NCBI GenBank assembly: GCA_963713825.1
Contig: CAVQNG010000005.1
Span: forward strand, 320,001-384,000
From: an uncultured Acidobacteriota bacterium
Lineage (GTDB): Bacteria; Acidobacteriota; Thermoanaerobaculia; Multivoradales; JAHEKO01
DNA: 64,000 nt
Reading direction: 5' to 3'
Within the stretch, counting starts at the first letter, position 1, and each line of letters opens with the position of its first letter. The position numbers and the translations under genes are program-made. The notes under the pieces were generated by a model. The model saw only the letters and a list, made by a program, of their open reading frames with translations, was not told the origin of the DNA and ran no database searches. This document shows, piece by piece, positions 6,821 through 54,198 of the stretch.

Positions 6821-6976
6821 TTGCGCCACTGGAGCCCGCAAAGGGGCTCCTTTGCCGAATCCGGGCCCGACGAAACCTCCAGACCTTCAAACGCGACGCA
6901 TCGCTTGCACAGGATGGCTGTGCTTTGCCGCGAGCCCGGAACGCACCAACTTCTTAATCTTGGAGAAGGACCGATC

Positions 6977-8704: not shown

Positions 8705-8725
8705 ACGAAAATAGGAACCAAGACC

Positions 8726-9514: not shown

Positions 9515-9532
9515 CTGGATCGCGTTGTCAGC

Positions 9533-22507: not shown

Positions 22508-22534
22508 GCCTGACGAGGTAGGCTTGCCCTCGCG

Positions 22535-26628: not shown

Positions 26629-26653
26629 ATACTCGAGAAAGACGCGGCAAGTG

Positions 26654-31334: not shown

Positions 31335-31353
31335 ATGTAGGCTACCGATAGCC

Positions 31354-32115
31354 ATGCGCTTCGTCGATCTGCACTGTCACCTCCTCCCAGGTCTGGACGA
31401 TGGAGCCGCTTCGCTTCAGGACAGCGTGGACATACTCCGGTTTGCCTATCAGCGGCGGACCCGGGGGGTCGTGGCCACACCGCATTCCTTTCAGCCAATG
31501 TTCACGACGCCCGGCCCGGTCGAGCTGCATGACGCCTTTGCTCGGCTGATGAATGACCTGCGCCAGCTCTCCCAGGAGGCCGAGACGTCGTTTCTGACGG
31601 AGATGGCAATCTACCTCGGCTCGGAGAATCTGGTTTCCCCCGAGTTCCTGGAAGCTCTCGCGAACCGAGAGGTCCTGCCCGTCAATGGGAGCCGCTACCT
31701 GATGGTGGAGTTCCCTCCTTTTCTCGCCTATTCTCTTGTCGAGTCGGCCATCGAGAAGATTCTGGCCGCGGAGCTGGTACCTCTCCTGGCCCACGTCGAA
31801 CGCTATGGGTTCTTTCATCGGCGACCGGGGAGAGTGGGCAACCTGAGGCAGAAGGGCTGCGTGATCCAAGTGAATGCCGAAATTCTCGAAGAGGGCAGGC
31901 TGGGAGATGGCTCGAGACTCGCGCTGTCCCTGGCCAGGCGCGGGCATCTGGACGTCATCGCATCGGATGGTCACGACGTCGGGGCCCGTCCTCCCGACAT
32001 GCAGGGCGCCTTCGAACGGCTATCCAAGGGATTCTCCGAGGAGAGTCTCCACACCTGGATGTGGGAGAATCCGGTTCGGATCCTGGGCAATCGGGACCTG
32101 GTTTCGGCTGTTTGA
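31354..32115 (+). CDS. CpsB/CapC PHP-family tyrosine phosphatase (copy 2)
   Basis: DLHCHLLPGLDDG, ATPH, AHVERY and ASDGH motifs; start at ATG 31354. Confidence 0.9.
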   Translation: MRFVDLHCHLLPGLDDGAASLQDSVDILRFAYQRRTRGVVATPHSFQPMFTTPGPVELHDAFARLMNDLRQLSQEAETSFLTEMAIYLGSENLVSPEFLEALANREVLPVNGSRYLMVEFPPFLAYSLVESAIEKILAAELVPLLAHVERYGFFHRRPGRVGNLRQKGCVIQVNAEILEEGRLGDGSRLALSLARRGHLDVIASDGHDVGARPPDMQGAFERLSKGFSEESLHTWMWENPVRILGNRDLVSAV

Positions 32116-33462: not shown

Positions 33463-33511
33463 TCGACTTCGCAAGATTCCCGAGCATCAGTTGGGTAGAC
33501 TTCCCTTGATC

Positions 33512-34387
33512 ATGAAGATTCGAAAGCTCGATATCTCTTGTTGGACGCTCCTGCTGGGGGCGGTCTTGGTATTGACGGCTGTGAGCTCCATTGCTCAAAC
33601 GGGCGCGACGCCGGCCGCGGATTCGAGCGTCATTATTGGCCCCGGGGATCTACTCGAAGTATCTGTGCTCGGCATCGAGGAGTTGAGCCGACGTGTGCAG
33701 GTCCTTGGTGATGGTTCCATCACCTTGCCCCCGCTCGGAAACTTCGTCGTTGCCGGCCAAACAGTTCAGCAGCTGGAGGCTACTGTGGCCAAGATGTTGG
33801 CCGACAATCGCCTGGTCAACGATCCTCAGGTCTCCATTTTCGTGGCCGAGTCGGTCGGCGGTGGAGTGTCGGTCCAAGGGGCGGTGCTCAAACCCGGCAG
33901 GTACAACCTCGTAGGCAGCAATACCCTGATCGAGGTCGTCGGTCAGGCCGGTGGTCTGGCCCACGACGCGGGCGGCCGCATCCTGGTTATGCGTGGGAGT
34001 CCCGAAATGGGCCAAGAGACCCTCGAGATCGATGTAGAGAGGCTCATGGAGGCAGGCGATGTGACGGCCAACATCAGCCTGCGCCCTGGCGACATTGTGG
34101 TAGTGCCGCGAGGTCGCAAGCTGCGGGTTTACGTCACCGGTGCTGTGAAGAGGCCTGGTGCAGTCGAGTACTCGAGTACGGAAGGGATCACGGTGCTCCA
34201 GGCAATCACCGCTGCCGGTGGCCCCACCGAACGCGCCAACCTCAAGAAAGTCACTATCAACCGCCGCCTCTCCGATGGCACGGAAGACCGCCTCCAGGTC
34301 AACGTCAAGAAGATCCAGAACGGCAAGGAGCCGGACCTACTGCTGGACCGCAACGACACGGTAGTGGTGGGGGAGTGGTTGCTTTGA
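33512..34387 (+). CDS. wza: Polysaccharide export protein (Wza/OPX, Poly_export plus SLBB domains)
   Basis: IGPGDLLEVSV, DGSITLP, VQGAVLKPG and VTGAVKRPG motifs. Confidence 0.9.
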   Translation: MKIRKLDISCWTLLLGAVLVLTAVSSIAQTGATPAADSSVIIGPGDLLEVSVLGIEELSRRVQVLGDGSITLPPLGNFVVAGQTVQQLEATVAKMLADNRLVNDPQVSIFVAESVGGGVSVQGAVLKPGRYNLVGSNTLIEVVGQAGGLAHDAGGRILVMRGSPEMGQETLEIDVERLMEAGDVTANISLRPGDIVVVPRGRKLRVYVTGAVKRPGAVEYSSTEGITVLQAITAAGGPTERANLKKVTINRRLSDGTEDRLQVNVKKIQNGKEPDLLLDRNDTVVVGEWLL

Positions 34388-34552: not shown

Positions 34553-35896
34553 TTGTCCTGGATTCCCCATCTGCTTCGAACGGGCCCCAGCCAGGGCACC
34601 GTAGTCCGTGAAGTCACAACAGCATCGTTGACGCTGCTGTCAGTCCGAAGTCTAGGTCTGGCTCTGGGCTTAGTAGCCAACATCCTACTGGCGCGTTTGT
34701 TGGGCGTAGAGGAATACGGAGTTTGGGCTGTCATCATGGCAACCATTGCCTTACTCGTGATTCCTGCTTCGGTTGGACTTCCCACTCTCCTTGTAAGAGA
34801 GGTGGCGATGGCTCGTGCCAGGGATGACTGGTCAACTCTGCTGGGTGTCTACAAGTGGTCTTTGCGAGTGGCACTGGCCACCTCGCTAGCCATCGGATTA
34901 GTGTGGGGAGGTATCGCTCTTCTACTACCAATCCGTCAGGTTCTGTCTCCGCTTCTCATTGCTGCTGTGGCGTTGATGATTCCGCTTCGCTCCTTGGCGG
35001 TCGTGCAATCAGGATATCTCCGTGGGCTCAACCATGTATCCTTGTCCGCTCTACCCGAATTCACAGGGGACCGCCTTGTTTTAGTGGGCTTTCTTACCTT
35101 TGTCTACCTGTATTTGCCGGACCGGTTTTCATTGTCTACGGCGATCTGGATTCAGGTTGGAGCGGCTGCACTAACCCTGTCCTTGTTGATCGGCCTTGGG
35201 TATCGCCTAGTGCCGGCCTTATCTAGAATTGCTAAGAGCGCGAGTCAGCGATCCTCCTGGAGAAAGTCGGCATTGACATTGGCCGCGACGCAGGGTCTCT
35301 TCGAACTTCAGGCTCAGATAGACAAACTGATGATTGGCGGATTGTCCAGTCCTGGTCAGGTGGGTCTATATTCGAGTGCGCAGCGATGGGCAAGCCTCTT
35401 GGGTTTCTTGATGGTCACAGTTAATCTGGTGCTGGGACCGGTGTTCGCTGACCTACTGGCTAGAGAAGATCGGAAGGGTGCCGAACAGTTGGCGCGGAAA
35501 GCGGTACTGATTGTCTTCGCTCTTGGGTTCGTGGGGGCGATATTTTTCTGGTTGTGGGGTGAGAATTTGTTGGGTCTCTTCGGAGCGGATTTCATCGTTG
35601 GAGATAGCGCGCTCAGGTTGCTTTTGGTGGGTCAGTTGGTGAATCTAGGCGCTGGAGCCGTCGGCACAATTTTGGTCATGGCCAAAAGGGAGACTATCGT
35701 CACTGCCGCAGTGGGCATCTCTACTATCGTCAACATGCTGTTGAACCTAGCACTCGTTCGACGGTTTGGAGCGAATGGTGCCGCAATGGCCACTTCTATC
35801 AGCACGATTTCTTGGAACCTGATTCTCTTGTGGGCGGTTCGTCGGTTTCTCGGGATCAATCCCTCCATCTTTGGAGGTGCTCTATGCCGGGCGTGA
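34553..35896 (+). CDS. wzx: Oligosaccharide flippase
   Basis: About 12 TM segments; LARLLGVEEYG, IDKLMIG..VGLYS and GANGAAMAT motifs. Confidence 0.88.
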   Translation: MSWIPHLLRTGPSQGTVVREVTTASLTLLSVRSLGLALGLVANILLARLLGVEEYGVWAVIMATIALLVIPASVGLPTLLVREVAMARARDDWSTLLGVYKWSLRVALATSLAIGLVWGGIALLLPIRQVLSPLLIAAVALMIPLRSLAVVQSGYLRGLNHVSLSALPEFTGDRLVLVGFLTFVYLYLPDRFSLSTAIWIQVGAAALTLSLLIGLGYRLVPALSRIAKSASQRSSWRKSALTLAATQGLFELQAQIDKLMIGGLSSPGQVGLYSSAQRWASLLGFLMVTVNLVLGPVFADLLAREDRKGAEQLARKAVLIVFALGFVGAIFFWLWGENLLGLFGADFIVGDSALRLLLVGQLVNLGAGAVGTILVMAKRETIVTAAVGISTIVNMLLNLALVRRFGANGAAMATSISTISWNLILLWAVRRFLGINPSIFGGALCRA

Positions 35897-36827
35897 ACTC
35901 TCTGTCCGATTTGAATCTCTTTCTTGTCGGCGCGCCGAAATGTGGTACTACCGCTATGTTCGATTTCCTCGGGGACAACATCCCGAGATTTTCTTTCCTC
36001 AGGTGAAGGAACTCCACTTTTTCGGTTTGGATCTGGAGATAGGTCCACCTGCCGCAAATTTCTCGACTAAGCCTCGGTCAGAAGAAGAGATTGCTCGGTA
36101 CTTGAGCTTCTTCGAAAGCGCGGCAAATGAGCCTGTACGGGGCGAGGGTTCGGTTTTCTATCTCTTTTCTCGCACGGCGGCTTCTGAAATCGCAAGTGCC
36201 TGTCCTAGCGCCCGGATCTTGATAATGCTCCGAAATCCAATAGACGTTGTGTGCTCTCTTCACAGCCAGTATTTGTTCGACGGGAACGAGTCTGACAAGC
36301 GCCTGGACGAGGCCCGGGGCCTGGCCGCAGACCGCTTGAAGGGTGGGAGCATTCCGCCAGGTTCTCATTTTCCTGCTGGCCTTCAATACCTAGATGTGGT
36401 CGACTTCCATACTAGAGTGGAGCGCTACATAGAGGAGTTCGGGAGAGAGAGAGTGTATGTGATACTCCTTGAGGAGTTCTCTGCAGACAATCGAACCGAA
36501 TACGAGCGAGTTCTCAGGTTCTTGGAAGTTGGAACCACGGAGATGCCCTCTTTTCGCAAGGTCAATCGGAACAAGTACGCTCGAAGTAGGATACTGAGAG
36601 ATGTCCTAAAACGTCCTCCGGCCTCATTCAAGGTGGCGGGAAGGCTACTCCCGAGAAGACTCCGCACCGAGATTAGGAAGAACCTGCTCTCTTTGAATCG
36701 AGTCGAGTCAGAACGGCTGCCTGTTGGCGGCCAGCTGCGGGAGCGTTTGATTTCCGAACTTGAACCTGGACTTGATGCTCTGGGTGAACTGCTCGAGGTG
36801 GATGTCAGATCTGTATGGGCCATCTAA
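35893..36827 (+). CDS. PAPS-dependent sulfotransferase, split by a frameshift at GGGG 35971-35974
   Basis: 5'-PSB motif VGAPKCGTT in one frame joins QHPEIF..KELHFF and the 3'-PB motif LRNPID..SLHS in another frame. Confidence 0.85.
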
Positions 36828-37774
36828 GTCTCATCTCAGACTGCCCATTGTGTTCCGCGCAGGACAGCGAGGTGGTTGAGGAGATTTCCGTCAGCCAGAT
36901 TGCCTTGCTGTACGGCCGCTTGATTCCTGGGTATCACCTGGAAGGGACATTCAGCTCAGAGAAAATCACTCTAGCTACATGCAATCAGTGTGGCCTTGGC
37001 TACTTCACTCCGGCCCCGGAGCCCCCGACCCACCTTTACGAGGAACTCTCAAAACTCCCGTGGTACTACCGGGGTGAAAAGCCTGAGTTTGACTTCGCCC
37101 GGAGGTTTGTAAAGCCTGGCAACACAGTACTAGATGTTGGTTGTGGGGGCGCTGCGTTTGCCCAGTACCTGGCGGGGGGAAAGTACGTAGGAATAGATGA
37201 GAATCCTGACGCCGTTCGTCGCGCACGGGAGAGAGGTGCAGAAGTAGAGCAATCATCGTTGGAGGAGTTCTCAGGCCTTGGGTATTCCAACTTCGACGTA
37301 GTTTGTGCATTCCAGGTGCTGGAGCACGTGCTCTCGCCAAGCAAGTTCCTCGATCAGCTAGTTGGATGGACCAAGGTTGGAGGTGTCATCGTCATATCCG
37401 TCCCTGCTGCAGACTCGTTCGTGTCGCTGGAAGTCAATGAGCCTCTTAACCTCCCACCTCACCATCTGACATGGTGGTTTGATCGAGCCCTGAACTATGT
37501 TGCCGAGATCGAAGGTCTGGATCTGATTTGGCTTCATCATGAGAGCTTGTCTGAACAGTTTCGGGCCCGGTACTCGAGGTGCCTGGTGAACGAAGTGCTG
37601 ACGAGGGCCCACTTGAGAGAGCGTAGGATTGTTGACTCCTCTCAGCTGGGCGCTGTCGCCTTGCGCTTGTCTTCCCTGCTGGGGAGACTCGTGGAAATCG
37701 GACTGAAGAATCCCAGGTTGTCTCCTCGGGGACATTCAGTGACGGCTGTGTTTCAGAAGCCTCTACTGCCATGA
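36815..37774 (+). CDS. Class I SAM-dependent methyltransferase with a Zn-binding N-terminus
   Basis: CPLC...CNQC, VLDVGCGG, FQVLEHV and PPHHL motifs. Confidence 0.88.
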   Translation: MGHLSLISDCPLCSAQDSEVVEEISVSQIALLYGRLIPGYHLEGTFSSEKITLATCNQCGLGYFTPAPEPPTHLYEELSKLPWYYRGEKPEFDFARRFVKPGNTVLDVGCGGAAFAQYLAGGKYVGIDENPDAVRRARERGAEVEQSSLEEFSGLGYSNFDVVCAFQVLEHVLSPSKFLDQLVGWTKVGGVIVISVPAADSFVSLEVNEPLNLPPHHLTWWFDRALNYVAEIEGLDLIWLHHESLSEQFRARYSRCLVNEVLTRAHLRERRIVDSSQLGAVALRLSSLLGRLVEIGLKNPRLSPRGHSVTAVFQKPLLP

Positions 37775-39028
37775 GGGTCGCGCTGGTCAGCTCATTCGAT
37801 CGGCGGGGCGGGGCGGGGATAGCTGCCCACAGATTGCATTTGGGATTAAGGGCGTCCGGAATCGAGAGTCAGATGATCGTTCAGTTTCGCGATTCGGATG
37901 ACCCTTCCGTCGTTGGTCCTGTGAACAAACTGGAGAGGATGTACCAGAACGTCGGCGAAGCTGTGGATCGAGTGCCACTTGCATTGTATCGACAGAAGTC
38001 CCGGAGTCTTTCTGTCTGCAATGGCTCCCAGGCAGTGGGCGTAAGCGGATCGAGCGGAGCAAGCCTGAGATCGTCAATCTGCACTCGTTTGGAGGCGGAT
38101 TCTTGAGTTTGGGAAGCGTGGCTCGGGTTGGGGTTCCGATCGTATGGACCATGCACGACAAGTGGTGCCTTTCCGGAGGTTGCCACTTCTCCGGCACGTG
38201 TAGGGCTTATTCTGAATGTTGTGGGCGCTGTCCAATCCTCGGGAGTAGATTCTCTTGGGATCTCTCACGATGGGTTTGGAAGAGAAAGAAGCACCTCTAT
38301 TCAAGAAAACTCATCTGCTTTGTGACCCCGAGCCAGTGGTTGGGCTCAAGAGGCTCGACAGAGTTCTCTATTGGGAGGTGCCCGAGTTGAGGTTATTCCG
38401 AACGGGATCGACCTCGATCGGTTCTGTCCGGTCGAGAAACGCGCTGCCCGTGAGGTACTTGGATTGGACCCGGATTCGCCCGTAGTCCTTTTCGGTGCGG
38501 AATCTGCGGCGGTCGACGATCGCAAAGGGCACCAGTTCCTGTCGCCGACACTTGCTTCGCTGGGAGCTCTGAACCTACCGAGGCCGGTGAAGTTGCTTGT
38601 TTTCGATGCCGGTTTCGATTCGAAGGCAATGTAGAACAACCTTATGAAGTGAAATTTCTGGCCGCCTCGAAGACGATCTAGCCTTGAAGATCGCCTACTC
38701 TGCCGCAGATGTGTTTCTTTGCCCCTCGACGGAGGACAATCTGCCAAACACCGTTGTCGAGGCGATGGCCTGCGGGACCCCAACAGTTGCATTCTCTGTC
38801 GGTGGACTTCCAGAGCTTATCGATCAGGGGAGAACAGGCTATTTGGCGGAACCTTTTGATGTGCAAGATTTGGCAAAGGGTATATTGGATGTTCTTCTCA
38901 ATCCTGAGTTTGCACGCGAGGCGCGAGCAAAGGCGGTTCGTGAGTTCGATGCCAGCCTCCAGGCCAGCCGATACGATGCTCTCTTTCAGGAGTTAATTGC
39001 CAGTAGTAGTCGATCGAGCAGTGGCTGA
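37771..39028 (+). pseudogene. GT4 glycosyltransferase (WcaC-like) broken by about four frameshifts (pseudogene or assembly error)
   Basis: Consecutive fragments GGAGIAAHRLH / VWTMHDKWCLSGGCH / IPNGID..RKG / EDNLPNTVVEAMACGTP in shifting frames. Confidence 0.85.
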
Positions 39029-44037: not shown

Positions 44038-44664
44038 GTGAATTCCAGAGGTTTGTACGTGAGACTGGGAAAGAGGGCTTTGGACTTGAGTCTGACGTTG
44101 TTGGCGGCCCCTATTTGGATTCCTCTAGTAGTCATTCTGAGTGTCCTGATTCGGCTGACTCTCGGTTCACCGGTCTTCTTCCGGCAAATGCGGCCAGGTT
44201 TCCGGGGCGGCAAGTTCGAGATTCTCAAATTGCGGACAATGAAGGAGAGTCCTGACGTAGACGGAGAAATGATCGCGGATCAGAATCGAATGACTCGGTT
44301 TGGGAGATTGTTGCGAGGCACCTCTCTTGACGAGCTTCCTGAGCTGATCAATGTCCTGAAAGGTGAGATGAGCCTGGTAGGGCCAAGGCCTTTGCTGATG
44401 CAGTATCTAGACCGCTATACCACACGGCAGGCGCGGCGCCATGAGGTCCTCGCGGGAATCACGGGTTGGGCGCAAGTCAATGGTCGTAACGCGATAACTT
44501 GGGAAGAGAAGTTCGAGTTCGACATTTGGTACGTTGACAATATGAGCCTCTGGCTGGATCTGAAGATTCTCGGGATGACGGTCTGGAAGGTTCTGAAGGG
44601 AGAAGGGTTGAGCGCGGCGGGACACGCCACGATGCCAGAGTTCATGGGGACCCCTGATGAGTGA
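44038..44664 (+). CDS. Initiating phosphoglycosyl transferase (PglC/EpsL-like)
   Basis: KRALDL, SLDELPEL, MSLVGPRP and GITGWAQVNGRN motifs. Confidence 0.92.
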   Translation: MNSRGLYVRLGKRALDLSLTLLAAPIWIPLVVILSVLIRLTLGSPVFFRQMRPGFRGGKFEILKLRTMKESPDVDGEMIADQNRMTRFGRLLRGTSLDELPELINVLKGEMSLVGPRPLLMQYLDRYTTRQARRHEVLAGITGWAQVNGRNAITWEEKFEFDIWYVDNMSLWLDLKILGMTVWKVLKGEGLSAAGHATMPEFMGTPDE

Positions 44665-45280
44665 GTCGGTAGTAGTTATCGGAGCGGGTGGGCATGCGAA
44701 GGTTGTCCTGGCAACCCTGGAGGCACTGGGGACTGAGGTGACCGGGATCTTCGACGACAGCGCGGATCTTTGGGGAACGCAGCTTCTGGGCCACGAAGTC
44801 AAAGGCCCGGTCCAAGAGGCGCAGAGCTACGGGGCGCCGGGCATTCTGGCCATTGGCTCGAACCGCCAGCGGCAGAAACTTGCGGAGGAGCTGTCGCTCG
44901 AGTGGGTGTCAGCCATCCACCCCTCCGCTTTGGTCCACGAAACTGTGGAGGTTGGGCCTGGCTCCGTCATCTTCGCTGGAGCGATAGTCCAGCCCGAGAC
45001 GGTCATTGGTGATCACGTCATCGTCAATACGGGCGCGAGGATCGACCACGACTGCCGGATCGGCTCGTTCGCGCATATTGCTCCAGGAGCGTCCTTGGCT
45101 GGGACGGTGGCGATCGGCCAGGGAGCCCTAATGGGTATTGGGAGTTGCGCGATTCCCGGAGTGACAATCGGCGATTGGTCTGTCGTAGGGGCAGGCGCTG
45201 CCGCTGTAAGTGACCTCGATTCGCAGGTCACTGCCACCGGAGTACCCGCGAAGTCGGCTGCGGGAGACCTCTCTTCATGA
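44657..45280 (+). CDS. Sugar N-acetyltransferase (PglD/NeuD/EpsM-like)
   Basis: GAGGHAKV, hexapeptide repeats, IDHDC and GVPA motifs. Confidence 0.9.
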   Translation: MSESVVVIGAGGHAKVVLATLEALGTEVTGIFDDSADLWGTQLLGHEVKGPVQEAQSYGAPGILAIGSNRQRQKLAEELSLEWVSAIHPSALVHETVEVGPGSVIFAGAIVQPETVIGDHVIVNTGARIDHDCRIGSFAHIAPGASLAGTVAIGQGALMGIGSCAIPGVTIGDWSVVGAGAAAVSDLDSQVTATGVPAKSAAGDLSS

Positions 45281-46401
45281 GCCGGGTCTTTCTTTCACCA
45301 CCTCACTTGGGTGAGTCCGAGTTGGAACTCGTCAAGGGTGTTTTTGCGAGCAACTGGATTGCTCCAGTAGGTCCTGACGTGGAGGCCTTCGAGCGGGAGT
45401 TCGCGGAGACGGTAGGCGTGGGCAGTGCTGCGGCACTGTCCTCGGGAACGGCGGCGCTGCACCTCGCGCTGAAGCTCCTCGGTGTCGGGACAGGAGATCT
45501 GGTGATCTGCTCGAATCTGACCTTTGCCGCCACTGCCTTCGCAATTCACTACGTCGGGGCAGAGCCGGTATTCGTGGATTGCGACTCTTCGACTTGGAAC
45601 ATGGATCCCGGCCTTCTTGGCGAGGCTTTGGAGACCCTGGCTGGTGAGGGGACGCTTCCCAAGGCTGCGATCGTCGTGGACCTCTACGGTCAGAGTGCTG
45701 ATTGGGAGCCGATTCAGGAAGCCTGCGCCAGATTCGGTGTTCCGATTGTCGAAGATGCCGCGGAAGCTCTGGGCGCCACTTATGGAGACACTCCTCTGGG
45801 TCGTTTCGGCCAATTCGGTGTCTTCTCATTCAACGGCAACAAGATCATCACGACATCGGGTGGTGGGATGTTGGTGTCCGACGATAAGTCGGCCATCGTG
45901 AAGGCTCGCAAGTTGGCCAGCCAGGCGAGGGAGGATGCGCCACACTACGAGCACACGGAGATCGGCTACAACTACCGATTGTCCAATGTCCTGGCGGCCA
46001 TCGGGCGAGGCCAACTTCGAGTACTGGAAGACCGAGTGGCTGCGCGTCGGCGGATTTTCGACTGGTATCAGGAATTTCTTGGAGATCTGCCCGGGGTGCG
46101 ATTCATGCCCGAAGCAGAGTATGGGCGAAGCACTCGGTGGCTCACCTGCCTGACCGTCGATCCTCGCGACTTTGGGGCCGCCCGGGAGGAGATTCGCTTG
46201 GCTCTCGAGATCGACGACATCGAAGCTCGTCCCGTATGGAAGCCGATGCACATGCAACCGGTCTTTCAAGGAGCTCGAATCTTCGGCGGGTCTGTTGCGG
46301 AAGAGCTCTTTGAAAAAGGGCTTTGTCTACCGTCGGGGTCAGCGATGACGAAAAGCGAAGTTGAGCGTGTCTCGAAAATCGTCCGCGGTTGCAGTGTCTA
46401 A
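45277..46401 (+). CDS. DegT-family PLP aminotransferase (PglE/EpsN-like)
   Basis: FLSPPH, SSGTAALHLAL, EDAAEALG and SFNGNKIITTSGGG motifs. Confidence 0.92.
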   Translation: MSRVFLSPPHLGESELELVKGVFASNWIAPVGPDVEAFEREFAETVGVGSAAALSSGTAALHLALKLLGVGTGDLVICSNLTFAATAFAIHYVGAEPVFVDCDSSTWNMDPGLLGEALETLAGEGTLPKAAIVVDLYGQSADWEPIQEACARFGVPIVEDAAEALGATYGDTPLGRFGQFGVFSFNGNKIITTSGGGMLVSDDKSAIVKARKLASQAREDAPHYEHTEIGYNYRLSNVLAAIGRGQLRVLEDRVAARRRIFDWYQEFLGDLPGVRFMPEAEYGRSTRWLTCLTVDPRDFGAAREEIRLALEIDDIEARPVWKPMHMQPVFQGARIFGGSVAEELFEKGLCLPSGSAMTKSEVERVSKIVRGCSV

Positions 46402-46419: not shown

Positions 46420-47631
46420 GTGCGGCAAGGACTCCGCTTCTCCCCACCTTCAATTGATGTACCCGCGGAAGTCGATTGGCTTCTTCTACGGGCTCTTGGG
46501 CGTGAGTTCACTGCCTGGGATGAAACGGGGACTCTCGATCCCAAGGGACTTTCCGAACTTGCGGGGGCAGTCGGACTACTTGGCCGAGTACGAGCTCGTT
46601 GGCCTCGTGAGAAGCTGGTTCCCGAGCTGGGTGCCGGCTTGTTGGAAGAGGCAGACAGGGCTATTCACCGGATTGCGGCGAACGAGCTGCTTCAAGAAAG
46701 GGTGTCCTCACAGATTGCCGGCATGGCCAGCGAAGAGGGAGAACCCTCCATCTTCCTGAAAGGCCTGGCGCTCCGATTGGGAGGCCATTCGATTGCGGGA
46801 GCTCGCCAAGCAAGTGACATCGATGTGTTGGTACCGCGTGACGCTGCCGAGTCTCTGTCTCGGACTCTCATCCAGGAGGGGAGCACCAAGCTCGAAATCC
46901 AGCCGCAAGAGCATCACCTTCCGCCGTTGGACCATCCGCTGGGAGCGGTAGTGGAGATTCATGTGGACCTTCGAGGGGTCAATCTGGAGGGGAGAGGAGC
47001 AGCCACAGCCGAAGAGTGCATCAGCTCAGGCCAATGCCGAGCTCTCGAAGGGTGGCCCGAGGGGACCTACATTCCGGATTCGAGCCTTTTGATGGCCCAC
47101 CTACTTGTACATGGCCTCGGACAACACGGTTTCTCACCGGGGGCATACCCATTGATACAACTCTTGGCTGACCTGCAGGATTTGGGCTTCACCGGCGAGC
47201 AGGGTGAGCGATTCATGGAGGAAGGTCTCCTCTGGATCCAGAATGAAGTCTCTCAAGAGGAAGTGGCAGGGACCAGAGATCTGTTGCGCCAGCTGGAAGA
47301 GGGCGAGAGGGCTTCCGAGATCGTGGTTAGGGACGTTGCCGCCGCCTTGATTCTCAAGCACATGTTGGCTGGATCGATGGATGCCGAGTATCGACAGTCT
47401 CTGAAGCTCTCTGCTGTTACCCGACCTTCGATCGCGCGTCCGGGTCTGACGGGTCTTCTTCGCAACATGAGTAGTGCGATCTTCTTGACGAGAGGTCAGA
47501 TCGACGTGATCTACGGACAGCCACAGACCGAGGTTGGCTATCTCGCTAGAAGGCTGTGGCGCCCCTTCGATCTCGTGGGCCGAACCCTCAAGACCTTGCA
47601 GGCCAAGAAGAAGCTTCGATTCCGCGAATAG
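46420..47631 (+). CDS. Nucleotidyltransferase family protein (NTP_transf_5-like)
   Basis: FLKGLAL...R..SDIDVLV...VEIH..L...HLLVH pattern. Confidence 0.8.
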   Translation: MRQGLRFSPPSIDVPAEVDWLLLRALGREFTAWDETGTLDPKGLSELAGAVGLLGRVRARWPREKLVPELGAGLLEEADRAIHRIAANELLQERVSSQIAGMASEEGEPSIFLKGLALRLGGHSIAGARQASDIDVLVPRDAAESLSRTLIQEGSTKLEIQPQEHHLPPLDHPLGAVVEIHVDLRGVNLEGRGAATAEECISSGQCRALEGWPEGTYIPDSSLLMAHLLVHGLGQHGFSPGAYPLIQLLADLQDLGFTGEQGERFMEEGLLWIQNEVSQEEVAGTRDLLRQLEEGERASEIVVRDVAAALILKHMLAGSMDAEYRQSLKLSAVTRPSIARPGLTGLLRNMSSAIFLTRGQIDVIYGQPQTEVGYLARRLWRPFDLVGRTLKTLQAKKKLRFRE

Positions 47632-47679
47632 GTGGGGGAGATCGACCCTCTGCTGTAGTAGGGTTCCAGGGACCGTGCC

Positions 47680-49614
47680 ATGAACGAATCGAACGGTGAG
47701 ACGCCCCGATCGCAGCCATCCTCGCCCTTGATCGGTGAGGAGCAGGGGCGTCGGAATCAGTTTTGGTCGCGTTTCTTCTCTCGCCAGGCCCAGTTCGTCC
47801 TCGACATCTCTGTCCTTTGCATAGCCTTCGTCATCGCCTATCTGCTGCGGTTCGAGTTTCAGCTCGACACTTCCCAACTGCAGCGACTGCTGGCCCAGCT
47901 GCCGCTGGTGGTGCTAATTCAGATTGGTGCACTGGTTCTGGCCGGTGTCTACAGCTTCATCTGGCGCTACGTTGGATTGGCCGAGATGGCTTCGTTCGTG
48001 AGAGCGGCCCTCTGGTCGGGATTGATTCTCTTGGTCGGGCGGTTGGCCTTGCCATCGTCTCTCCAGATCTGGCGAGTACCTCTTTCCATCATCCTGATGA
48101 GCACGTTCTTCGGATTTGCCGGAGTCGTGACGATTCGGGTGCTCCGTCGGATCCTCTTCGAGCGCTTCGAGCAGAAACGTCGACCGGTGGAGCCGTACAA
48201 GCGCAAACAGATCTTGATGGTCGGTGCTGGCAGAGCAGGTGTTCTGGCAGCCCGCGAGATTCGCGGCCGGGGCGATATGGATGTGTGGATCAAGGGTTTC
48301 GTCGACGATGATCCACGTAAGCAGGGGGCTGTCATCCAAGGCAAGAAGGTCCTTGGGACGACGGACGATCTCCCTGAAATATGCCGATCCACGGACATCG
48401 ACCACGTCATCATCACGATTGCCCAGATCTCCAGAGAGGAGCTACGGAGGATCGTGGCGATCTGTGAGGAGATTCCCCTCAGGACTCGCATCATCCCGGG
48501 GCTCTACGAGATTCTCGAAGGGCGAGTCGGGATCACGAGATTTCGGGACATCGAGATCGAAGATCTCCTGGGCCGGGCAACCGTGCAACTGGAGCAGGAA
48601 GCGGTAGAACCGTTCATCAAGAACAAGACGGTGCTGGTGACCGGGGCGGGAGGCTCGATCGGAGCCGAGCTGTCGAAGCAGATCGCCCGGTTCGGACCCG
48701 CCAACCTCATTCTCCTGGAGCGAGCGGAGTTCGCTCTGTTTCAGATCGATCGGGAGCTCTCCATTGATTGGCCCCAGCTGAGCATTCAGCCCGTGGTGGC
48801 AGACATCTGTGACCGCAATCGGGTACGACAGATCTTCGACCGTTGGAAGCCTGAAGTGGTCTTCCATGCTGCCGCTCACAAACATGTTCCACTGACCGAA
48901 TCCAATCCTTGCGAGGCGGTGAAATCCAACACCCTGGGGACATGGATCGTGGGCGAGGTCGCGGGAGAGTTCGGCTGCGAGGCAATGGTTGTGGTGTCCA
49001 CGGACAAAGCCGTCCGTCCGACGTCGGTAATGGGAGCGACGAAGAGAGTCGCAGAGCTTGCGGTGCAAGAGCTCGACGCGCGCAATGGCACTCGTTATGT
49101 GGCTGTGCGCTTCGGCAATGTGCTGGGTTCTACGGGGTCGGTCATTCCGATCTTTCGCGAGCAGATCGAGGCGGGTGGGCCGGTGACCGTGACGCATCCC
49201 GAGATGGTGCGCTACTTCATGACCATCCCGGAGGCGGCTCAGCTGGTGTTGCAGGCTGGCGCGATGGGTGAGGGAGGCGAGATCTTCATCCTCGATATGG
49301 GAGAGCCCGTGCGAATCCTCGACCTGGCCCGGGACATGATCACGCTCAATGGCCTGGTGCCGGACGAGGACATCGAGATCGAGATCACGGGAATGCGGCC
49401 GGGTGAGAAGCTCTTCGAGGAGCTTCAGACCGACGCCGAGTCGATCGCCAAGACGCGGCATCCGAAGATCTTCATCGGGAACATCAACTCCTATCCTTCG
49501 GAGCAGATCCTTGGAGCGCTGGACCGGCTGCGTGACTTGTCTGCGGGCGGCGAAGAGGCTGAAGTTCGATCGTTCCTGAACGAGTTTCTGTCCGAGGCGA
49601 AGCTCACCATCTAG
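47680..49614 (+). CDS. Membrane-bound UDP-GlcNAc 4,6-dehydratase (PglF/CapD/EpsC-like)
   Basis: Four N-terminal TMs; EDLLGR, TGAGGSIG, HAAAHKHVP, STDKAV, MGATK and RFGNVLGS motifs. Confidence 0.93.
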   Translation: MNESNGETPRSQPSSPLIGEEQGRRNQFWSRFFSRQAQFVLDISVLCIAFVIAYLLRFEFQLDTSQLQRLLAQLPLVVLIQIGALVLAGVYSFIWRYVGLAEMASFVRAALWSGLILLVGRLALPSSLQIWRVPLSIILMSTFFGFAGVVTIRVLRRILFERFEQKRRPVEPYKRKQILMVGAGRAGVLAAREIRGRGDMDVWIKGFVDDDPRKQGAVIQGKKVLGTTDDLPEICRSTDIDHVIITIAQISREELRRIVAICEEIPLRTRIIPGLYEILEGRVGITRFRDIEIEDLLGRATVQLEQEAVEPFIKNKTVLVTGAGGSIGAELSKQIARFGPANLILLERAEFALFQIDRELSIDWPQLSIQPVVADICDRNRVRQIFDRWKPEVVFHAAAHKHVPLTESNPCEAVKSNTLGTWIVGEVAGEFGCEAMVVVSTDKAVRPTSVMGATKRVAELAVQELDARNGTRYVAVRFGNVLGSTGSVIPIFREQIEAGGPVTVTHPEMVRYFMTIPEAAQLVLQAGAMGEGGEIFILDMGEPVRILDLARDMITLNGLVPDEDIEIEITGMRPGEKLFEELQTDAESIAKTRHPKIFIGNINSYPSEQILGALDRLRDLSAGGEEAEVRSFLNEFLSEAKLTI

Positions 49615-49637
49615 TTCGCAAGGTCGAGTCCCCCAAC

Positions 49638-50066
49638 CTATTTCGATAGCAGGGGCAGGAAGCGCTCCCCGATGGCCTCCGGCTCGTTCATGGGCTTGCC
49701 GGTCAGCTCGAGCCAGGCGTGGGCCTCCAAATCGCCCCCCTGTTTCTGGACGCCGATCTTGAGCTCAGCCTCGACGCCGCGCTTGCGGAGCATTCTTTGC
49801 CGTGTCAGTGAGCGCTCGAGGCACTGCATGCGCCACAAATGATTGTTGGCTGCCGCATCGACGCACCAAGCGAGGCGAGAGTAGTCCTCTCGAGTCGCTT
49901 CCTCTGTCTGTGGTGTCTCGATGACAGGTACCCGAGCCCACGTCTCGACGGCAGGGAACGGTCGTGTTCGCAGCGCCACGCGGAACCCCAGCAGGAGTAT
50001 CCAGGCTTCCACCAGCCAGCGTCTCTCAGCCCAGGTCAGACCAAGGATCTGCTCAGTCTTGCTCAT
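49638..50066 (-). CDS. Lasso peptide B2 leader peptidase (transglutaminase-like)
   Basis: CLERSL...L.IGV...AHAWLE Cys/His motif; overlaps the PqqD gene. Confidence 0.9.
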   Translation of the reverse strand: MSKTEQILGLTWAERRWLVEAWILLLGFRVALRTRPFPAVETWARVPVIETPQTEEATREDYSRLAWCVDAAANNHLWRMQCLERSLTRQRMLRKRGVEAELKIGVQKQGGDLEAHAWLELTGKPMNEPEAIGERFLPLLSK

Positions 50067-50325
50067 GCACGATCTCGAGGAGGCCCTGGTCGCAGAGCTC
50101 CTGCGTCAGTGATTGGAGGTCTCGCTGGAGTCGAGCACCGTCTACCTCGAACTCGTCCAGGAGGTCGAAGGCGGCTTGTTCCAGCGTCCCGTGCTTTTCC
50201 AGGGCCAGCCACATGCGTGTGCCGACGTCGTCGAGGCCAAAATAGAAGCCGGTGGAGAGGTTCAGAAGAACAGTCTCGTTCTCCAACTCTCGAAAGACGA
50301 CCTGTTCTGGTACTTTGACTCGCAC
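50053..50325 (-). CDS. PqqD-family RiPP recognition element (lasso B1)
   Basis: VLLNL..G.YFGLDDVGTRMW..L...EFEVD...DL...L...GLL; GGAGA RBS. Confidence 0.92.
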   Translation of the reverse strand: MRVKVPEQVVFRELENETVLLNLSTGFYFGLDDVGTRMWLALEKHGTLEQAAFDLLDEFEVDGARLQRDLQSLTQELCDQGLLEIVHEQD

Positions 50326-50421
50326 TGCATTCTCCGTGATCGGGTGGCGGCTTCCCGGGTAGGATAGCAGCGCATGCTGACAACATGCGGAGGACTATCG
50401 ACAGTACCGAGGTTTTGAATC

Positions 50422-51240
50422 GTGACGACAGAAGGCAAGAAGAAGGAAGTGGGAACGTGGTGGGTATCCGGCTTGCGTGTCGCTAGCGATCGCCCGCTGA
50501 TCGAAGTCGAACCGAGCAGTGACCAAGACGTGGATCTGCAAGTGCTGTTTCGGGCTGATCCGGGGAGCGAGGTCGATGTCGGAGTGCTTTCCTCGGCCGA
50601 CAGCTCAGGCGACTGGTTCAAGTTGATGGATAAGGACGCAGCGCTGGCGTGGATCCGCGCTGACGGGCGATTGGCCCTGGTCGCGGAGGGCGAGGCGTTG
50701 GTCCGCGGTTTCGATGCATTGGTTCGACGGGTCGTGCCTTTCGCAGCTGCTTTGCAGGACCGGGTTGTACTCCACGCCTCGTCGGTCCTTGCTGATGACG
50801 GTGTGCATGCGTTTATCGGTGCCAGTGGCGCTGGCAAGTCGAGCCTCGCGGAGTGCCTGGGCGATCAGGGGTTCCCCGTTCTGTCGGATGATCTGTTGCT
50901 GTGCCTACCGACCGATACCGGGATCGTGATCCCGCGCCCAGGGCAGGATGAAGACGACGAGTCGGGGCCCGCACTCGCCGCCGTCTATTTCGTCGAGCGT
51001 GAGGTGGCGCTCGACAAGATCGATCTCCAGGAGATGGCTGAGGAGGAGTGTTTCAAAGGTCTGCTGCAGCACGGTTTCGGAGAGTTGAGTGTTCCGAAGA
51101 TCTGGGCAGCCCAGTTCGAGCTCTACTCGATCATCTCGGAGCAGTGCAAAGCCTACCGGCTGCGGCTCCCCGATTCTCTGGGACGGCTCGCAGAGTCCGC
51201 TGAGACCTTGGCTCGAGGCTGGAGCCCGGTCCAAGATTGA
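50422..51240 (+). CDS. HPr-kinase-related kinase
   Basis: LHASSV, P-loop GASGAGKSSL and LSDD motifs. Confidence 0.82.
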   Translation: MTTEGKKKEVGTWWVSGLRVASDRPLIEVEPSSDQDVDLQVLFRADPGSEVDVGVLSSADSSGDWFKLMDKDAALAWIRADGRLALVAEGEALVRGFDALVRRVVPFAAALQDRVVLHASSVLADDGVHAFIGASGAGKSSLAECLGDQGFPVLSDDLLLCLPTDTGIVIPRPGQDEDDESGPALAAVYFVEREVALDKIDLQEMAEEECFKGLLQHGFGELSVPKIWAAQFELYSIISEQCKAYRLRLPDSLGRLAESAETLARGWSPVQD

Positions 51241-51262
51241 CCCCTTCGCCAACCCAGCCGAC

Positions 51263-53203
51263 ATGAGTGGCATCGCCGGAATCGTGCATTGGGATGGTCG
51301 CCCAGTGGCGGATGGCGATCTCGGACGCATGCTGGGGGCGATCCGCCACCGCGGGCCCGATGGCCTGGTAGGAGAGGTCACAGAGTCGGTGGCGCTCGGA
51401 CAGGCGAGGCTCGCAATGCGGGCTGAGGAGCGAGAGCACACCCAGCCGGTGTGGCTGCCAGACCGCTCTTGCGCCATCGTGGCGGACGCCAGGCTCTACA
51501 ACCGGGAAGAGCTTCTGAGCGATATGGCTGGCGCGAATCGGATCGCCGGCCCGGCTTCGGATGCTGCGCTTCTTCTCGCGGGTTACGAGCGCTGGGGCGT
51601 CGAGGTGCTTCAGCGCCTCAATGGTGACTTCGCTTTCGCCATCTGGGACTCGTCGAAACAGCAGATCTTCGCGGCTCGGGATCCGTTCGGAGCCAAGCCA
51701 TTCGTATTCTGGTCCGGCAGCGACACGTTTCGATTCGGTTCCGAGCCGAAGCAGCTCCTGATCTTCCCCGAAGTGCCGGTTGAGCCCGAGAGTCAGACCG
51801 TCGTCGAGCATCTTCTGGACTTGCCAAAGGCTCGGGAGCTGACCTTCTTCCGTGGGGTGCATCGGCTGCGGGCCGCGCACTTCCTGGTGGCTTCTGCCGA
51901 CGGCATCGCCCAGCGCACCTATTGGCACCCAGAGAGCCTCGGTCTTCTCGAGCTGTCTTCAGAGGAAGAGGCCTTCGATCGCTTTCGCGCTTTGTTCAAG
52001 CAGTCCATCGCAAGTCGACTCGGGACCGACGGGTCTGTCGGTGCGCAGCTGAGCGGAGGTTTGGACTCCTCATCGGTGGCTGCCATGGCGGCGGAGATCT
52101 ACGGCGACGCAGGCGAGGATCTGCCCCAGCTGGAGACCATTTCGGAAACCTATGCGAGTTTTCCCTGCGACGAGACTCCTTACATCGAAACGATGGCCGA
52201 GTGGCTTCCTTTTCCCTCTCGTCGGATCGATTGCTCGGAATTCGATTTCGCCTCGTCGATCGAGACGGAGGTCTGGAATGAAGATGGGCCGACCGCAGAG
52301 CTGACCCCGGACCGGACCCGGAGCAACTCCGAGGTGTTGTCGAGTTTCGATGCGCGGATCCTGATGACCGGGTATGGAGGGGATGAGCTGACCTGGGATC
52401 CGGAATGGGCTCCCGACCTGCTGAAGCAGGGTCGGGTGCTGTCGGCCTTGGAGCAGTCCTGGCAGCTGAGCCGTTTACCGGAAGAGGATGCCTTGCCGTC
52501 GATCCTCAAGAGGGCGATCGTGCAATCAATACCCGAGAGCCTGAGGGCGTCCTTGGCAGCGATACGTCCGCGAAGGACCCTGGAGTGGCCCGTTCACCTG
52601 CAGCCTGATCTGCTTCGCCCTATCGGAGATGTCGAAGAGCCCCTCGAGTCGAGGAACACGTCCTTCTCGTCTGCCCAGCGAACCGTCCTCCGATGGCTCA
52701 CCGACCCTCTGCTGTATTGGAATCTGGAACGGCTCGAACAGCGGTACGCGTTCTGGGGCGTGGAGATGAGGCATCCCTTCTTCGACAGAGGATTGGCCGA
52801 GTTGGTTCTGACCACTCCGTTCGAACGTAGGGTCGCTCCGCCCAGCAGGCGCAAGGCGCTGCTGCAAGAGGCTATGCAAGGGATCCTGCCGCCAGAGATT
52901 CTCCGGCGGCGCAGTCAGGTCGTGTTCGACTCCTACTTCCAGGAGGCCTGGCGGCAGTGGCAGCCACGTTTGAGGGCAGTGATCCACTCCTCAGATGCAT
53001 GGCTCTCTGAGCCCTATACTGATCGAGAGACAGTCCTCTCGTGGCTGGAATCACCGGCCCGGGATGAGACGATGCCGATGCGGGTGCTGTCGCAGGTCTG
53101 GGCAGCCTTGGGTCTGGAGGTTTGGCTCAGGGGCCTTGGTCGCTACTCGGCTGCGGAGTATGATGATGCATCGCAATCGCTGGGAGATGAAGACCATGCC
53201 TGA
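51263..53203 (+). CDS. Lasso cyclase (asparagine synthetase-like isopeptide bond-forming enzyme)
   Basis: MSGIAG start (Ser replaces the glutaminase Cys); LSGGLDSS, TGYGGDEL and RHPFFD motifs; flanked by B1/B2 and the precursor. Confidence 0.88.
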   Translation: MSGIAGIVHWDGRPVADGDLGRMLGAIRHRGPDGLVGEVTESVALGQARLAMRAEEREHTQPVWLPDRSCAIVADARLYNREELLSDMAGANRIAGPASDAALLLAGYERWGVEVLQRLNGDFAFAIWDSSKQQIFAARDPFGAKPFVFWSGSDTFRFGSEPKQLLIFPEVPVEPESQTVVEHLLDLPKARELTFFRGVHRLRAAHFLVASADGIAQRTYWHPESLGLLELSSEEEAFDRFRALFKQSIASRLGTDGSVGAQLSGGLDSSSVAAMAAEIYGDAGEDLPQLETISETYASFPCDETPYIETMAEWLPFPSRRIDCSEFDFASSIETEVWNEDGPTAELTPDRTRSNSEVLSSFDARILMTGYGGDELTWDPEWAPDLLKQGRVLSALEQSWQLSRLPEEDALPSILKRAIVQSIPESLRASLAAIRPRRTLEWPVHLQPDLLRPIGDVEEPLESRNTSFSSAQRTVLRWLTDPLLYWNLERLEQRYAFWGVEMRHPFFDRGLAELVLTTPFERRVAPPSRRKALLQEAMQGILPPEILRRRSQVVFDSYFQEAWRQWQPRLRAVIHSSDAWLSEPYTDRETVLSWLESPARDETMPMRVLSQVWAALGLEVWLRGLGRYSAAEYDDASQSLGDEDHA

Positions 53204-53357
53204 CAACTATCGCGACCCGAAAAGAAACCAAAGCGGCTCGAAGACTCGCAAACCCTACAACAAGCCCGAGCTGAAGAAGCACGGCCACATGGCCGACGTC
53301 ACCCAGAAGAGCGGTAACAACTTCGACAATAGCCAACAGTGGCAGTCGAAGAAGTAG
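53196..53357 (+). CDS. Lasso peptide precursor, 53 aa: leader ...KPYNKPELKKHGHMADVTQ, core KSGNNFDNSQQWQSKK
   Basis: YxxPxLxxxGxxxxxT leader signature; overlaps the cyclase stop; GGAG upstream; double TAG stop. Confidence 0.85.
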   Translation: MPDNYRDPKRNQSGSKTRKPYNKPELKKHGHMADVTQKSGNNFDNSQQWQSKK

Positions 53358-53379
53358 TAGGTCTCTCGCCGCTTGGCGC

Positions 53380-54198
53380 ATGCCTCGCACGCCCCTTACA
53401 GCACGACTCTTCTGCTTTTCCGATGGCGTTTTCCGCCAGGTCAATTCTGCGATCTTGGCCCTTTATCAGGGCTTCTGGTTGGGTTGGATGGGATCGAAGT
53501 CCCTGAACGAAGCGACTCGCCTCTACTACGCGGGACGATCGAAGTACCTGGACTCCGAGTACAACACCTCAGGCTTGAAGGACTGGGAGGCTCGTATCGC
53601 GGATCGCTACTTCAGCGACTGTCGGACCTTGCTCGTCGGTGCTGTTGGTGGCGGGAGAGAAGCGGTGGCTCTGGCCGAGAGAGGAAAGGCTGTTACGGCC
53701 TTCGAATGCTCCGCAGAACTGGCCCAGAGTGCCCGTGATGTGCTTTCCAGAGAGGGACTGATTGCCGAGGTGATGACGGTGGCCCCCAGCGAGGTGCCAA
53801 GTCTCGACACCTGTTTCGATGGAGCTGTGGTGGGCCTGGGTGGCTACATGCACATCCCGGGCAAGGCCGTCAGAGTGCGCTTCCTCCAGGATCTTCGAGA
53901 TCGGGTCGAGTCTGGAGCGCCGCTGCTACTCTCCTTCTTCACCCGCACTCCCGACTCTCGGTTCTTCCTCTGGAGCCGAAGGGTGGCCCGTTTCATTCGC
54001 CGACTTCGATTCAGCCGGGAGGAGGTGGATCTGGGGGACGCGGTGGACAGGTCCTTCGACCATCACTTCACGCAGGAAGAGATTGCCGCTGAGCTGGCCG
54101 CCGCCGGCTTCGAGCTGGTCGACTACGGCGAGGACCCGATAGGCCATGCCGTGGGCCTGGCTACACGTGTGATTCCTCGAACTGCTCCTCTTCGGTAG
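53380..54198 (+). CDS. Class I SAM-dependent methyltransferase-like protein
   Basis: [11 protein letters not shown] (degenerate motif I), AFEC, FDGAV..Y.HIP; starts 22 nt after the precursor. Confidence 0.72.

Follow-up and report, generated by a model that had tools for sequence, protein, structure and literature searches.

We analysed a 64,000-nucleotide stretch of an acidobacterial genome (the window, G000:C5:320001-384000), taken from a 5.4-Mb assembly of 38 contigs, in which genes for a lasso peptide adjoin a capsule-like polysaccharide locus reaching from ~22.5 to 49.6 kb. An initial annotation, made from the sequence letters, had described the two as a complete lasso peptide cluster fused to the polysaccharide locus and had proposed a phosphorylated or glycosylated lasso peptide tied to the surface glycan. 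The gene content and its conservation indicate that this is probably an intact lasso cluster with a split B protein and a tailoring kinase, in which B2 and B1 diverge from an operon of kinase, cyclase, precursor and methyltransferase (K-C-A-MT), and that its juxtaposition with polysaccharide genes is probably lineage-specific. The genes concerned are the following.

46420-47631, plus strand: NTP_transf_5 nucleotidyltransferase (NTase), candidate 'N' tailoring enzyme (PF14907, E value 3.6e-16, 59.9 bits against a cut-off of 31.2)
49638-50066, minus strand: B2 leader peptidase, transglutaminase-like (NF033537 lasso_biosyn_B2, E 1.7e-25; PF13471, E 6.3e-24)
50053-50325, minus strand: B1, a RiPP recognition element (RRE) of the PqqD family, 90 amino acids (aa) from a GTG start, with a 14-nucleotide (nt) overlap with the start of B2 (PF05402, E 1.3e-14)
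50326-50421: divergent intergenic region between B1 and the kinase, 96 nt, read from the sequence; presumed bidirectional promoter
50422-51240, plus strand: HPr-kinase-like peptide kinase (K), called on weak profile matches and catalytic residues
51263-53203, plus strand: putative lasso cyclase (C), Asn-synthetase-like (PF00733, E 3.4e-41; NF033535, E 1.7e-103, below cut-off)
53196-53357, plus strand: precursor (A), 53 aa, overlapping the cyclase stop; leader residues 1-37, predicted core residues 38-53 (DNA 53307-53354)
53380-54198, plus strand: class-I S-adenosylmethionine (SAM) methyltransferase (MT), last gene of the K-C-A-MT operon (PF13649, E 6e-5, weak)

The elements that the initial annotation had listed, A, B1, B2 and C among them, are all present and intact. 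Its 23-nt gap between the sugar gene PglF and B2 was exact, the TAG of PglF ending at 49614 and the edge of the B2 open reading frame (ORF), a stop codon, lying at 49638. B2 scored 89.9 bits against NF033537 (cut-off 33). Both B genes lie on the minus strand as stated, with a correction to B1: the longest minus-strand ATG ORF, 50063-50386, gave no family match even at E ≤ 1, and because the PqqD match lies in another frame, B1 was assigned to the GTG ORF. This ORF reached 54.7 bits against PF05402 (cut-off 23.4) and E values of about 4e-11, under the cut-offs, against the lasso PqqD models NF033530 and NF033536. A sigma-70 consensus scan of the 96-nt spacer between B1 and the kinase found nothing.

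The divergent gene had been called an HPr-like kinase, and it is weakly and distantly so. It gave no Pfam match at E ≤ 0.01 and 30.8 bits against TIGR04352 (E 1.5e-7, cut-off 200), and its profile matched the HPr kinases 2qmh and 1jb1 best among solved chains (E 6.3e-4); the H / GxxGxGKS / DD pattern is present as H118, G133-x-x-G136-x-G138-K139-S140 and D156-D157. In the cyclase, the N-terminus MSGIAG has Ser where asparagine synthases carry Cys1, a replacement noted at the outset, and the SGGLDS motif is present. The methyltransferase that had been placed after the precursor shows weak class-I SAM matches, together with a weak match to the daptide methyltransferase NF041820 that serves as a lead only. 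Its orthologs occupy the same position in four relatives (L094-L097; 36-47% identity, GGGRE motif invariant), and another, in L124, is 52% identical over the tblastn match.

Precursor family and the setting of the operon in relatives

The leader of the precursor contains the predicted YxxPxLxxxGxxxxxT motif, with Y-17, P-14, L-12 and T-2 counted from a predicted cut after Gln37. The 16-residue predicted core begins with Lys1, Ser2 and Gly3, has its acceptor at Asp7, within the range of core positions (7-9) expected for the Asp or Glu acceptor of a lasso precursor, and ends in Lys-Lys. Orthologous precursors lie between cyclase and methyltransferase in L094-L097. With that of the window, all five share K-[S/T]-G-x-[N/D]-x-D straight after T/V-x, and four of the five keep the Y/P/L/G leader motif; the exception, L094, has Val at -2 and also in place of the Leu and the Gly of the motif. 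Since relatives carry the same motif, spacing and position, the precursor is no chance ORF. A C-terminal Ser is absent from all five, the four orthologs ending in Gly, Gly, Gly and Pro, so that the family lacks the feature by which paeninodin- and pseudomycoidin-type substrates are defined.

Our search for the kinase operon covered 401 genomes from the class and 45 from the family, and we annotated its flanks. The conserved unit was K-C-A-MT, whole in G010, G023, G036, G362 and G429 with kinases 35-43% identical. In the sequenced flanks of these five relatives, Wzx, Wzy, Wzc, Wza, glycosyltransferase, Pgl and NTP_transf_5 genes were found in none (0/5), and the only possibly glycan-related neighbours were an MBOAT gene (L094) and an Acyl_transf_3 gene (L095). 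B2 is unlinked from the operon in G023 (~420 kb away), G036 and G010, where it lies among unrelated genes, and B1 is next to the operon in G023 only. Within the genus, G002 keeps B2-B1-K-C on a 3.4-kb contig, and the sister species L013 keeps the order PglD-PglE-NTase-PglF at 75-84% protein identity. G005, of the same genus, is collinear with the window over 19112-23274 (MetH-CpsB, 80% nucleotide identity) and then over 50458-51220 (kinase, 73%); what the window has between CpsB and the kinase, a 27-kb block comprising the polysaccharide locus, NTase, PglF, B2 and B1, is absent there, and no B2 or NTase match was found in this genome, which is 70% complete. Three further genomes of the genus, one of them 100% complete, gave no kinase ortholog. 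Kinase homologs of about 70% identity were also seen on contigs of 434 kb (P0097), 514 kb (P0099) and 48 kb (P0101). A metagenome scan with the kinase alignment returned 21 loci with one close relative (L101, 99%, on a 2.8-kb contig) and nothing on synteny.

The adjacency of lasso and polysaccharide genes is thus real and confined to this lineage, the 0/5 whole-operon flanks and the G005 gap being what makes it lineage-specific, and it does not amount to a conserved peptide-glycan system. The fusion of the two loci proposed in the initial annotation is the claim that synteny largely contradicted.

Other lasso precursors occur beside cyclase paralogs in L006, L007, L008, L010, L012, L014, L036, L075, L081, L082, L084 and L086. 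Their cores mostly have Gly1 with Asp or Glu around position 8; that of L014 starts with Leu and that of L075 with Ala. Lasso clusters are common in this clade of relatives, and their parts are often scattered over separate loci.

The nucleotidyltransferase and its neighbourhoods

The NTP_transf_5 gene lies, as had been noted, within the adjacent sugar operon (PglC-D-E-NTase-F), whose other members are listed here.

44038-44664, plus strand: PglC-like phosphoglycosyl transferase, first gene of the operon (PF02397 Bac_transf, E 4.6e-61)
44657-45280, plus strand: PglD-like acetyltransferase, 8-nt overlap with PglC (PF17836 PglD_N, E 9.5e-14, and hexapeptide repeats)
45277-46401, plus strand: PglE-like aminotransferase, 4-nt overlap with PglD (PF01041 DegT_DnrJ_EryC1, E 4.7e-92)
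47680-49614, plus strand: PglF-like membrane-anchored uridine diphosphate (UDP)-sugar 4,6-dehydratase (PF02719 Polysacc_synt_2, E 9.1e-116)

All four enzyme families of a Pgl-type di-N-acetylbacillosamine (diNAcBac) pathway are found in this single operon; against TIGR03589 PseB, PglF gave E 4.9e-53, under the cut-off. The NTase follows PglE after 18 nt and precedes PglF by 48 nt; PglF parts it from B2, and it lies ~2 kb from the lasso genes. Its AlphaFold 2 model (pLDDT 89.3) has a pol-beta-type nucleotidyltransferase core, with MenT1, ANT(2'')-Ia, TM1012 and LnuA as the best Foldseek matches (E from 6.6e-4, TM-scores of 0.5-0.7 on the target), and a search of PDB sequences with its profile gave nothing at E ≤ 1. 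G127, R129, D133 and D135 are invariant among 30 homologs.

We collected 80 loci with NTase homologs (29-75% identity) from species-representative genomes, nearly all Acidobacteriota. Gene calls in these loci are approximate and came from a codon log-odds picker trained on the window genes; greedy longest-ORF calling was rejected, as it picked antisense ORFs in the GC-rich DNA. In tblastn searches with window proteins, Wzc was found within 10 kb of the NTase in 28 of the 80 loci, Wza and CpsB in 27, PglC in 20 and PglF in 8, and a cyclase-like match was found in 8. Hidden Markov models (HMMs) detected PqqD in 50 loci, an HprK-like gene in 39 and a B2-like gene in 24; at least one of the three is present in 55 of the 80, and in 48 of the 59 with at least 8 kb downstream. 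The NTase family thus habitually sits both in polysaccharide loci and beside peptide-recognition genes, mostly without a lasso cyclase.

We also computed a maximum-likelihood tree of 74 full-length NTases, after seven rows with frame breaks or truncation had been dropped. It places the window NTase and that of L013 in a five-row clade (SH-aLRT 99) with L014, L018 and L034. In L014 the NTase is accompanied by cyclase, precursor, kinase-like gene, B2 and B1, in that order, and the set adjoins isocitrate lyase and malate synthase as in the window; in L018 and L034 the order is NTase, B1, kinase, B2. The rows neighbouring this clade are PglF-adjacent NTases.

A predicted complex of NTase and B1 scored 0.69, and the best control scored 0.01. 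Of the solved complexes, 116 of 157 came up to that mark, as did 2 of 215 mismatched pairs. The runs shared at least 38% of contacts, with partner pLDDT of at least 83, and the predicted interface involves NTase residues 82-94. The model lends support to a possible binding of the NTase to the RRE protein B1, and together with the gene neighbourhoods it suggests that the PF14907 gene may be RRE-linked.

Several cyclase-less assemblies of the same families were observed. In L059 (10001-20909), beside CpsB-Wzc-Wza, lie an NTase, Wzy, a TPR protein, a signal-peptidase-like protein, an ScmC-like P-loop protein, PqqD and a radical-SAM/SPASM protein, followed further on by DUF3344, PqqD, a B2-like gene, an HprK_rel_A-like gene and a second NTP_transf_5; neither a lasso cyclase nor a precursor was identified there. 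This layout recurs in Thermoanaerobaculia polysaccharide loci, with similar ones among L020-L092; part of the 27 loci with Wza and CpsB was annotated. A second such module lies in the same genome, at G000:C3:1329632-1333373 (L122 7632-11373), with NTP_transf_5 (PF14907, E 4.6e-47), an HprK_rel_A-like gene (E 5.5e-22), PqqD and a 273-aa protein without a family. These sets of HprK-like, PqqD, B2-like and NTP_transf_5 genes, in polysaccharide loci of relatives and on C3, resemble what Haft reportedly described computationally as the 'HPr-rel-A system' (TIGR04352 HprK_rel_A, TIGR04353 PqqD_rel_X) and the SynChlorMet cassette (ScmC/D/E/F). The cluster of the window differs in that its kinase and B1 fall far below the model cut-offs, neither reaching the HPr-rel-A equivalog cut-offs and B1 giving no match to TIGR04353 at E ≤ 0.001, and in that it adds a cyclase and a bona fide lasso precursor. 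The L059-type module may be the more novel object. MazE/PIN toxin-antitoxin pairs lie between NTase and B2 in L081 (11252-12800) and L084 (6293-6942), a MazE gene lies beside PqqD in L016 (12089-12337), and an IS21-type element (IstB and transposase) lies between PglF and NTase in L043 (7840-9887).

Proposed biosynthesis and rival explanations

In the pathway that we propose, B1 would bind the leader through its YxxPxL motif and the HPr-like kinase would phosphorylate a core hydroxyl of the linear precursor, the invariant Ser/Thr2 being the best guess because no precursor of the group ends in Ser. B2 would then cut after Thr(-2)-Gln(-1), and the Ser1 cyclase would close a 7-membered ring between the alpha-amine of Lys1 and Asp7. 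The resulting lasso would have 16 residues, with a calculated monoisotopic mass of 1876.88 Da for the cyclised core and 1894.89 Da for the linear one. The conserved methyltransferase would add a methyl group. The NTP_transf_5 enzyme is probably one more tailoring enzyme that depends on the RRE, like its counterparts in the pseudomycoidin and bsf clusters; on the strength of its neighbourhoods and the predicted fold, we lean towards its acting on the B1-bound peptide. That its donor is drawn from the surrounding Pgl enzymes is speculative, and we would not expect it.

Clusters combining a kinase and a nucleotidyltransferase are already in print, and the initial annotation was right to treat the two as a documented lasso tailoring pair (PMC8498205, PMC10368454). 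Among the closest precedents is the bsf cluster of Bradymonas sediminis FA350 (BsfA/B1/B2/C/D/K/N; PMC10368454). Like the window, it has separate B1 and B2 genes, a cyclase and an HPr-like kinase, together with a gene predicted to encode a nucleotidyltransferase. BsfK, with catalytic residues H148, G163, G166, G168, K169, S170, D186 and D187, phosphorylates core Ser3, not a C-terminal Ser, in a reaction that B1 speeds (PMC10368454). The catalytic residues of the window kinase are spaced identically, a comparison of positions and not of the Bsf protein sequences themselves, and in both systems the precursor does not end in Ser, the target hydroxyl of BsfA lying near the core N-terminus. The window differs from bsf in having Thr at -2 (Ile in bsf), an invariant hydroxyl at core position 2 (3 in bsf), Lys as core residue 1 and a conserved methyltransferase, in having no ABC transporter, and in the place of the NTase within a Pgl operon, with PglF between it and B2. 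Acidobacteriaceae lasso precursors are also mentioned in that paper.

Paeninodin-type clusters (Zhu et al. 2016, as summarized in PMC8498205) likewise contain an HPr-kinase homolog, which acts on the linear precursor, and some add a nucleotidyltransferase and a sulfotransferase; their defining C-terminal Ser is absent in all five precursors here, and phylum and gene order differ. Pseudomycoidin from Bacillus pseudomycoides (Zyubko et al. 2019, as summarized in the same review) is the precedent for a sugar joined through phosphate and, like the window, pairs a kinase with a nucleotidyltransferase; its target is a C-terminal Ser, which the window lacks, and its sugar is a hexose, whereas the sole hint on the donor in the window is the surrounding diNAcBac-type pathway. 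A 2026 review (PMC13352647) lists Ser glycosylation among lasso modifications. The window stands apart through a distinct precursor family, marked by Lys1, Ser/Thr2 and Asp7 and by the absence of a C-terminal Ser, through its conserved methyltransferase and through the location of its NTase gene in a sugar operon.

A number of points weigh against the reading of the locus as a kinase-tailored lasso cluster with an RRE-guided NTase. The lasso product is predicted from its genes, every pathway step being read from protein families. The best NCBIfam match of the cyclase, the lasso cyclase model NF033535, reached 347.5 bits, below its 525-bit cut-off. Lys at core position 1 is, to our knowledge, unusual for lasso peptides, and the cleavage site may lie elsewhere; the target residue of the kinase is a guess. 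No dedicated lasso-type ABC exporter or isopeptidase was found in the window, which has only a TetR/OEP/HlyD/AcrB efflux set downstream. The NTase is co-operonic with the sugar genes, not with the lasso genes, and its homologs are present in 32 of the 45 family genomes, the kinase ortholog in only 6 of 45; the NTase family clearly has roles without this lasso operon, and co-presence of the two across genomes is uninformative. The NTase homologs of G010, G023 and G429 are encoded far away from K-C-A-MT. The HMMs for B1, B2 and kinase with which the 80 loci were counted had been built in part from sequences of those loci, the NTase tree comes from a quick search only, and the complex score of 0.69 is a model confidence obtained with custom unpaired alignments. 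With G005 only 70% complete and its contig breaking off within the kinase gene, loss of the block there cannot be told from gain in the window.

The NTase could instead serve the polysaccharide pathway, acting on a sugar, a lipid-linked intermediate or a regulator, and the lasso cluster would then consist of B2-B1/K-C-A-MT, with the neighbourhood an accident of island insertion. This explanation agrees with the packing of the gene among PglC-F, with the Wzc, Wza, CpsB and PglC counts within 10 kb of its homologs, with the far wider spread of NTase than kinase in the family and with the lack of an NTase beside K-C-A-MT in the five relatives. It also agrees with base composition, as the GC content of the lasso genes (0.60-0.62) equals the genome level and that of the sugar genes at 34-48 kb is lower (0.54-0.59). 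It fits less well with the PqqD-type RRE that accompanies the NTase family in 50 of 80 loci, and we know of no role for such an RRE besides peptide binding; the nearest NTase relatives, moreover, are flanked by B1, K and B2, and the predicted fold with B1 passed its controls. We regard this explanation as a serious possibility, though not a likely one. That fold and the tight gaps to PglE and PglF would suit a free lasso peptide on which the B1-guided NTase puts a diNAcBac-type UDP-sugar from PglD/E/F, onto the phosphorylated peptide, in the manner of pseudomycoidin but with another sugar and no bond to the capsule. The PglD-PglE-NTase-PglF order is kept in the sister species, and PglF-adjacent NTases are sister rows of the window's clade; in all eight loci with PglF within 10 kb it lies upstream of the NTase, and four of these (L015, L016, L031 and L033) also have PqqD 1.2-1.8 kb downstream. 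The pseudomycoidin nucleotidyltransferase puts one or two hexoses on phospho-Ser (PMC8498205). However, the four loci with both PglF and PqqD all belong to one family (Ca. Sulfomarinibacteraceae), so they are not independent, and none of them has a kinase, B2 or cyclase gene in the surrounding 10 kb. The Pgl genes have an obvious task apart from any peptide, as PglC initiates the lipid-linked repeat unit of the neighbouring polysaccharide; the orthologous K-C-A-MT operons have no sugar or NTase genes alongside; and the fold match is to a generic nucleotidyltransferase core, nearest to enzymes that transfer nucleoside monophosphate to hydroxyls and silent on sugar transfer. We judge such a sugar-decorated free peptide unlikely.

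A broader form of the idea is quite unlikely. It would have an RRE-guided NTP_transf_5 couple a sugar of the diNAcBac pathway, or a nucleotide, to a phosphorylated Lys1-type lasso peptide, and would take the NTP_transf_5/PqqD/HprK-like/B2 modules in dozens of acidobacterial Wzc/Wza/Wzy loci for a peptide-modifying family wired to surface polysaccharide; if so, the lasso cluster of the window would be the sole module member with an identifiable substrate peptide. Very improbable, in our view, is the hybrid that the initial annotation had in mind, a lasso peptide tied covalently to the surface polysaccharide and not released. The two loci are contiguous, a 31-kb stretch over both behaves as one variable block (copied as contig C32 and mostly absent in G005), many acidobacterial polysaccharide loci hold PqqD, HprK-like, B2 and NTP_transf_5 genes, and a dedicated peptide exporter is absent from the window. 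Yet no gene in the window points to a step that would move a peptide onto an undecaprenyl-linked glycan, or such a glycan onto a peptide, and K-C-A-MT stands without glycan genes in five relatives. The modules embedded in polysaccharide loci mostly lack a cyclase, a cyclase-like match being present in 8 of 80, and so are not lasso systems, and a literature search, mainly outside subscription journals, turned up no lasso peptide linked to a polysaccharide locus. Of the product first proposed, a phospho- or sugar-decorated lasso peptide is plausible, whereas its attachment to the glycan found no support.

Lasso peptides attract interest as stable scaffolds and as antibiotics, and the tailoring reactions known to act on them are few. 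For the field this is an ordinary cluster; it adds an uncharacterised acidobacterial lasso type with a predicted Lys1-Asp7 ring, a kinase, a conserved methyltransferase and no C-terminal Ser. The part worth an experiment is the question of NTase, RRE and sugar. NTP_transf_5 genes lie near lasso clusters in the literature and beside polysaccharide genes in our 80 loci, and the cluster family offers a concrete route to their function. An NTase that draws on the neighbouring sugar pathway would mean a lasso modification of a new sort; one that does not would make the window an example of how proximity to a capsule locus fails as evidence for a hybrid system.

The surrounding polysaccharide locus

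Besides the Pgl operon, the polysaccharide locus contains the following genes.

22535-23287: CpsB
24286-26628: Wzc
26546-27973: Wzy-like, followed by a TPR protein and an FGE-sulfatase-domain protein
31228-32115: second CpsB
33434-34387: Wza
34553-35896: Wzx
rest of the locus: a sulfotransferase-like gene, a methyltransferase, GT2/GT4 glycosyltransferases and a second Wzy

On the other side, downstream of the lasso methyltransferase and on the opposite strand, lie isocitrate lyase and malate synthase, and then the TetR/OEP/HlyD/AcrB efflux set. Neither a tRNA gene nor direct or inverted repeats in the flanks were found to delimit the 27-kb segment, and a scan for promoter and terminator consensus sequences found fewer sites than in shuffles and none at operon borders.

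Sulfation genes occur at 6914-10954, 30336-31334 and 35871-36827, with a fused ATP sulfurylase/APS kinase, a CysQ-like phosphatase and a sulfatase; the FGE-sulfatase-domain protein and a weak sulfotransferase match belong to the same set. Their presence suggests that the polysaccharide of the locus is sulfated. A GT4 glycosyltransferase appears in pieces over 37771-39028, ORF 38684-39028 matching the C-terminal part of Glycos_transf_1 (E 2.5e-21) and ORF 38371-38634 giving a faint match to the GT4 N-domain, and the gene looks disrupted. The 3' ends of the two CpsB paralogs are 73% identical over 179 nt, and short inverted matches join a minus-strand unnamed gene (23372-24106) to the gene at 32116-33462, a possible sign that part of the locus was duplicated in inverted orientation at its left edge.

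Contig G000:C32 (31.3 kb) carries a second copy, 99.6% identical, of the polysaccharide and lasso block (window 23266-54590, G000:C5:343266-374590). In this copy the NTase is broken over several frames, with 5-7 in-frame TGA codons on read-through, and the contig is probably a redundant, error-prone or strain-variant one and no true duplication. The left end of the copied block, at 23266, coincides with the break in synteny with G005 at 23274.

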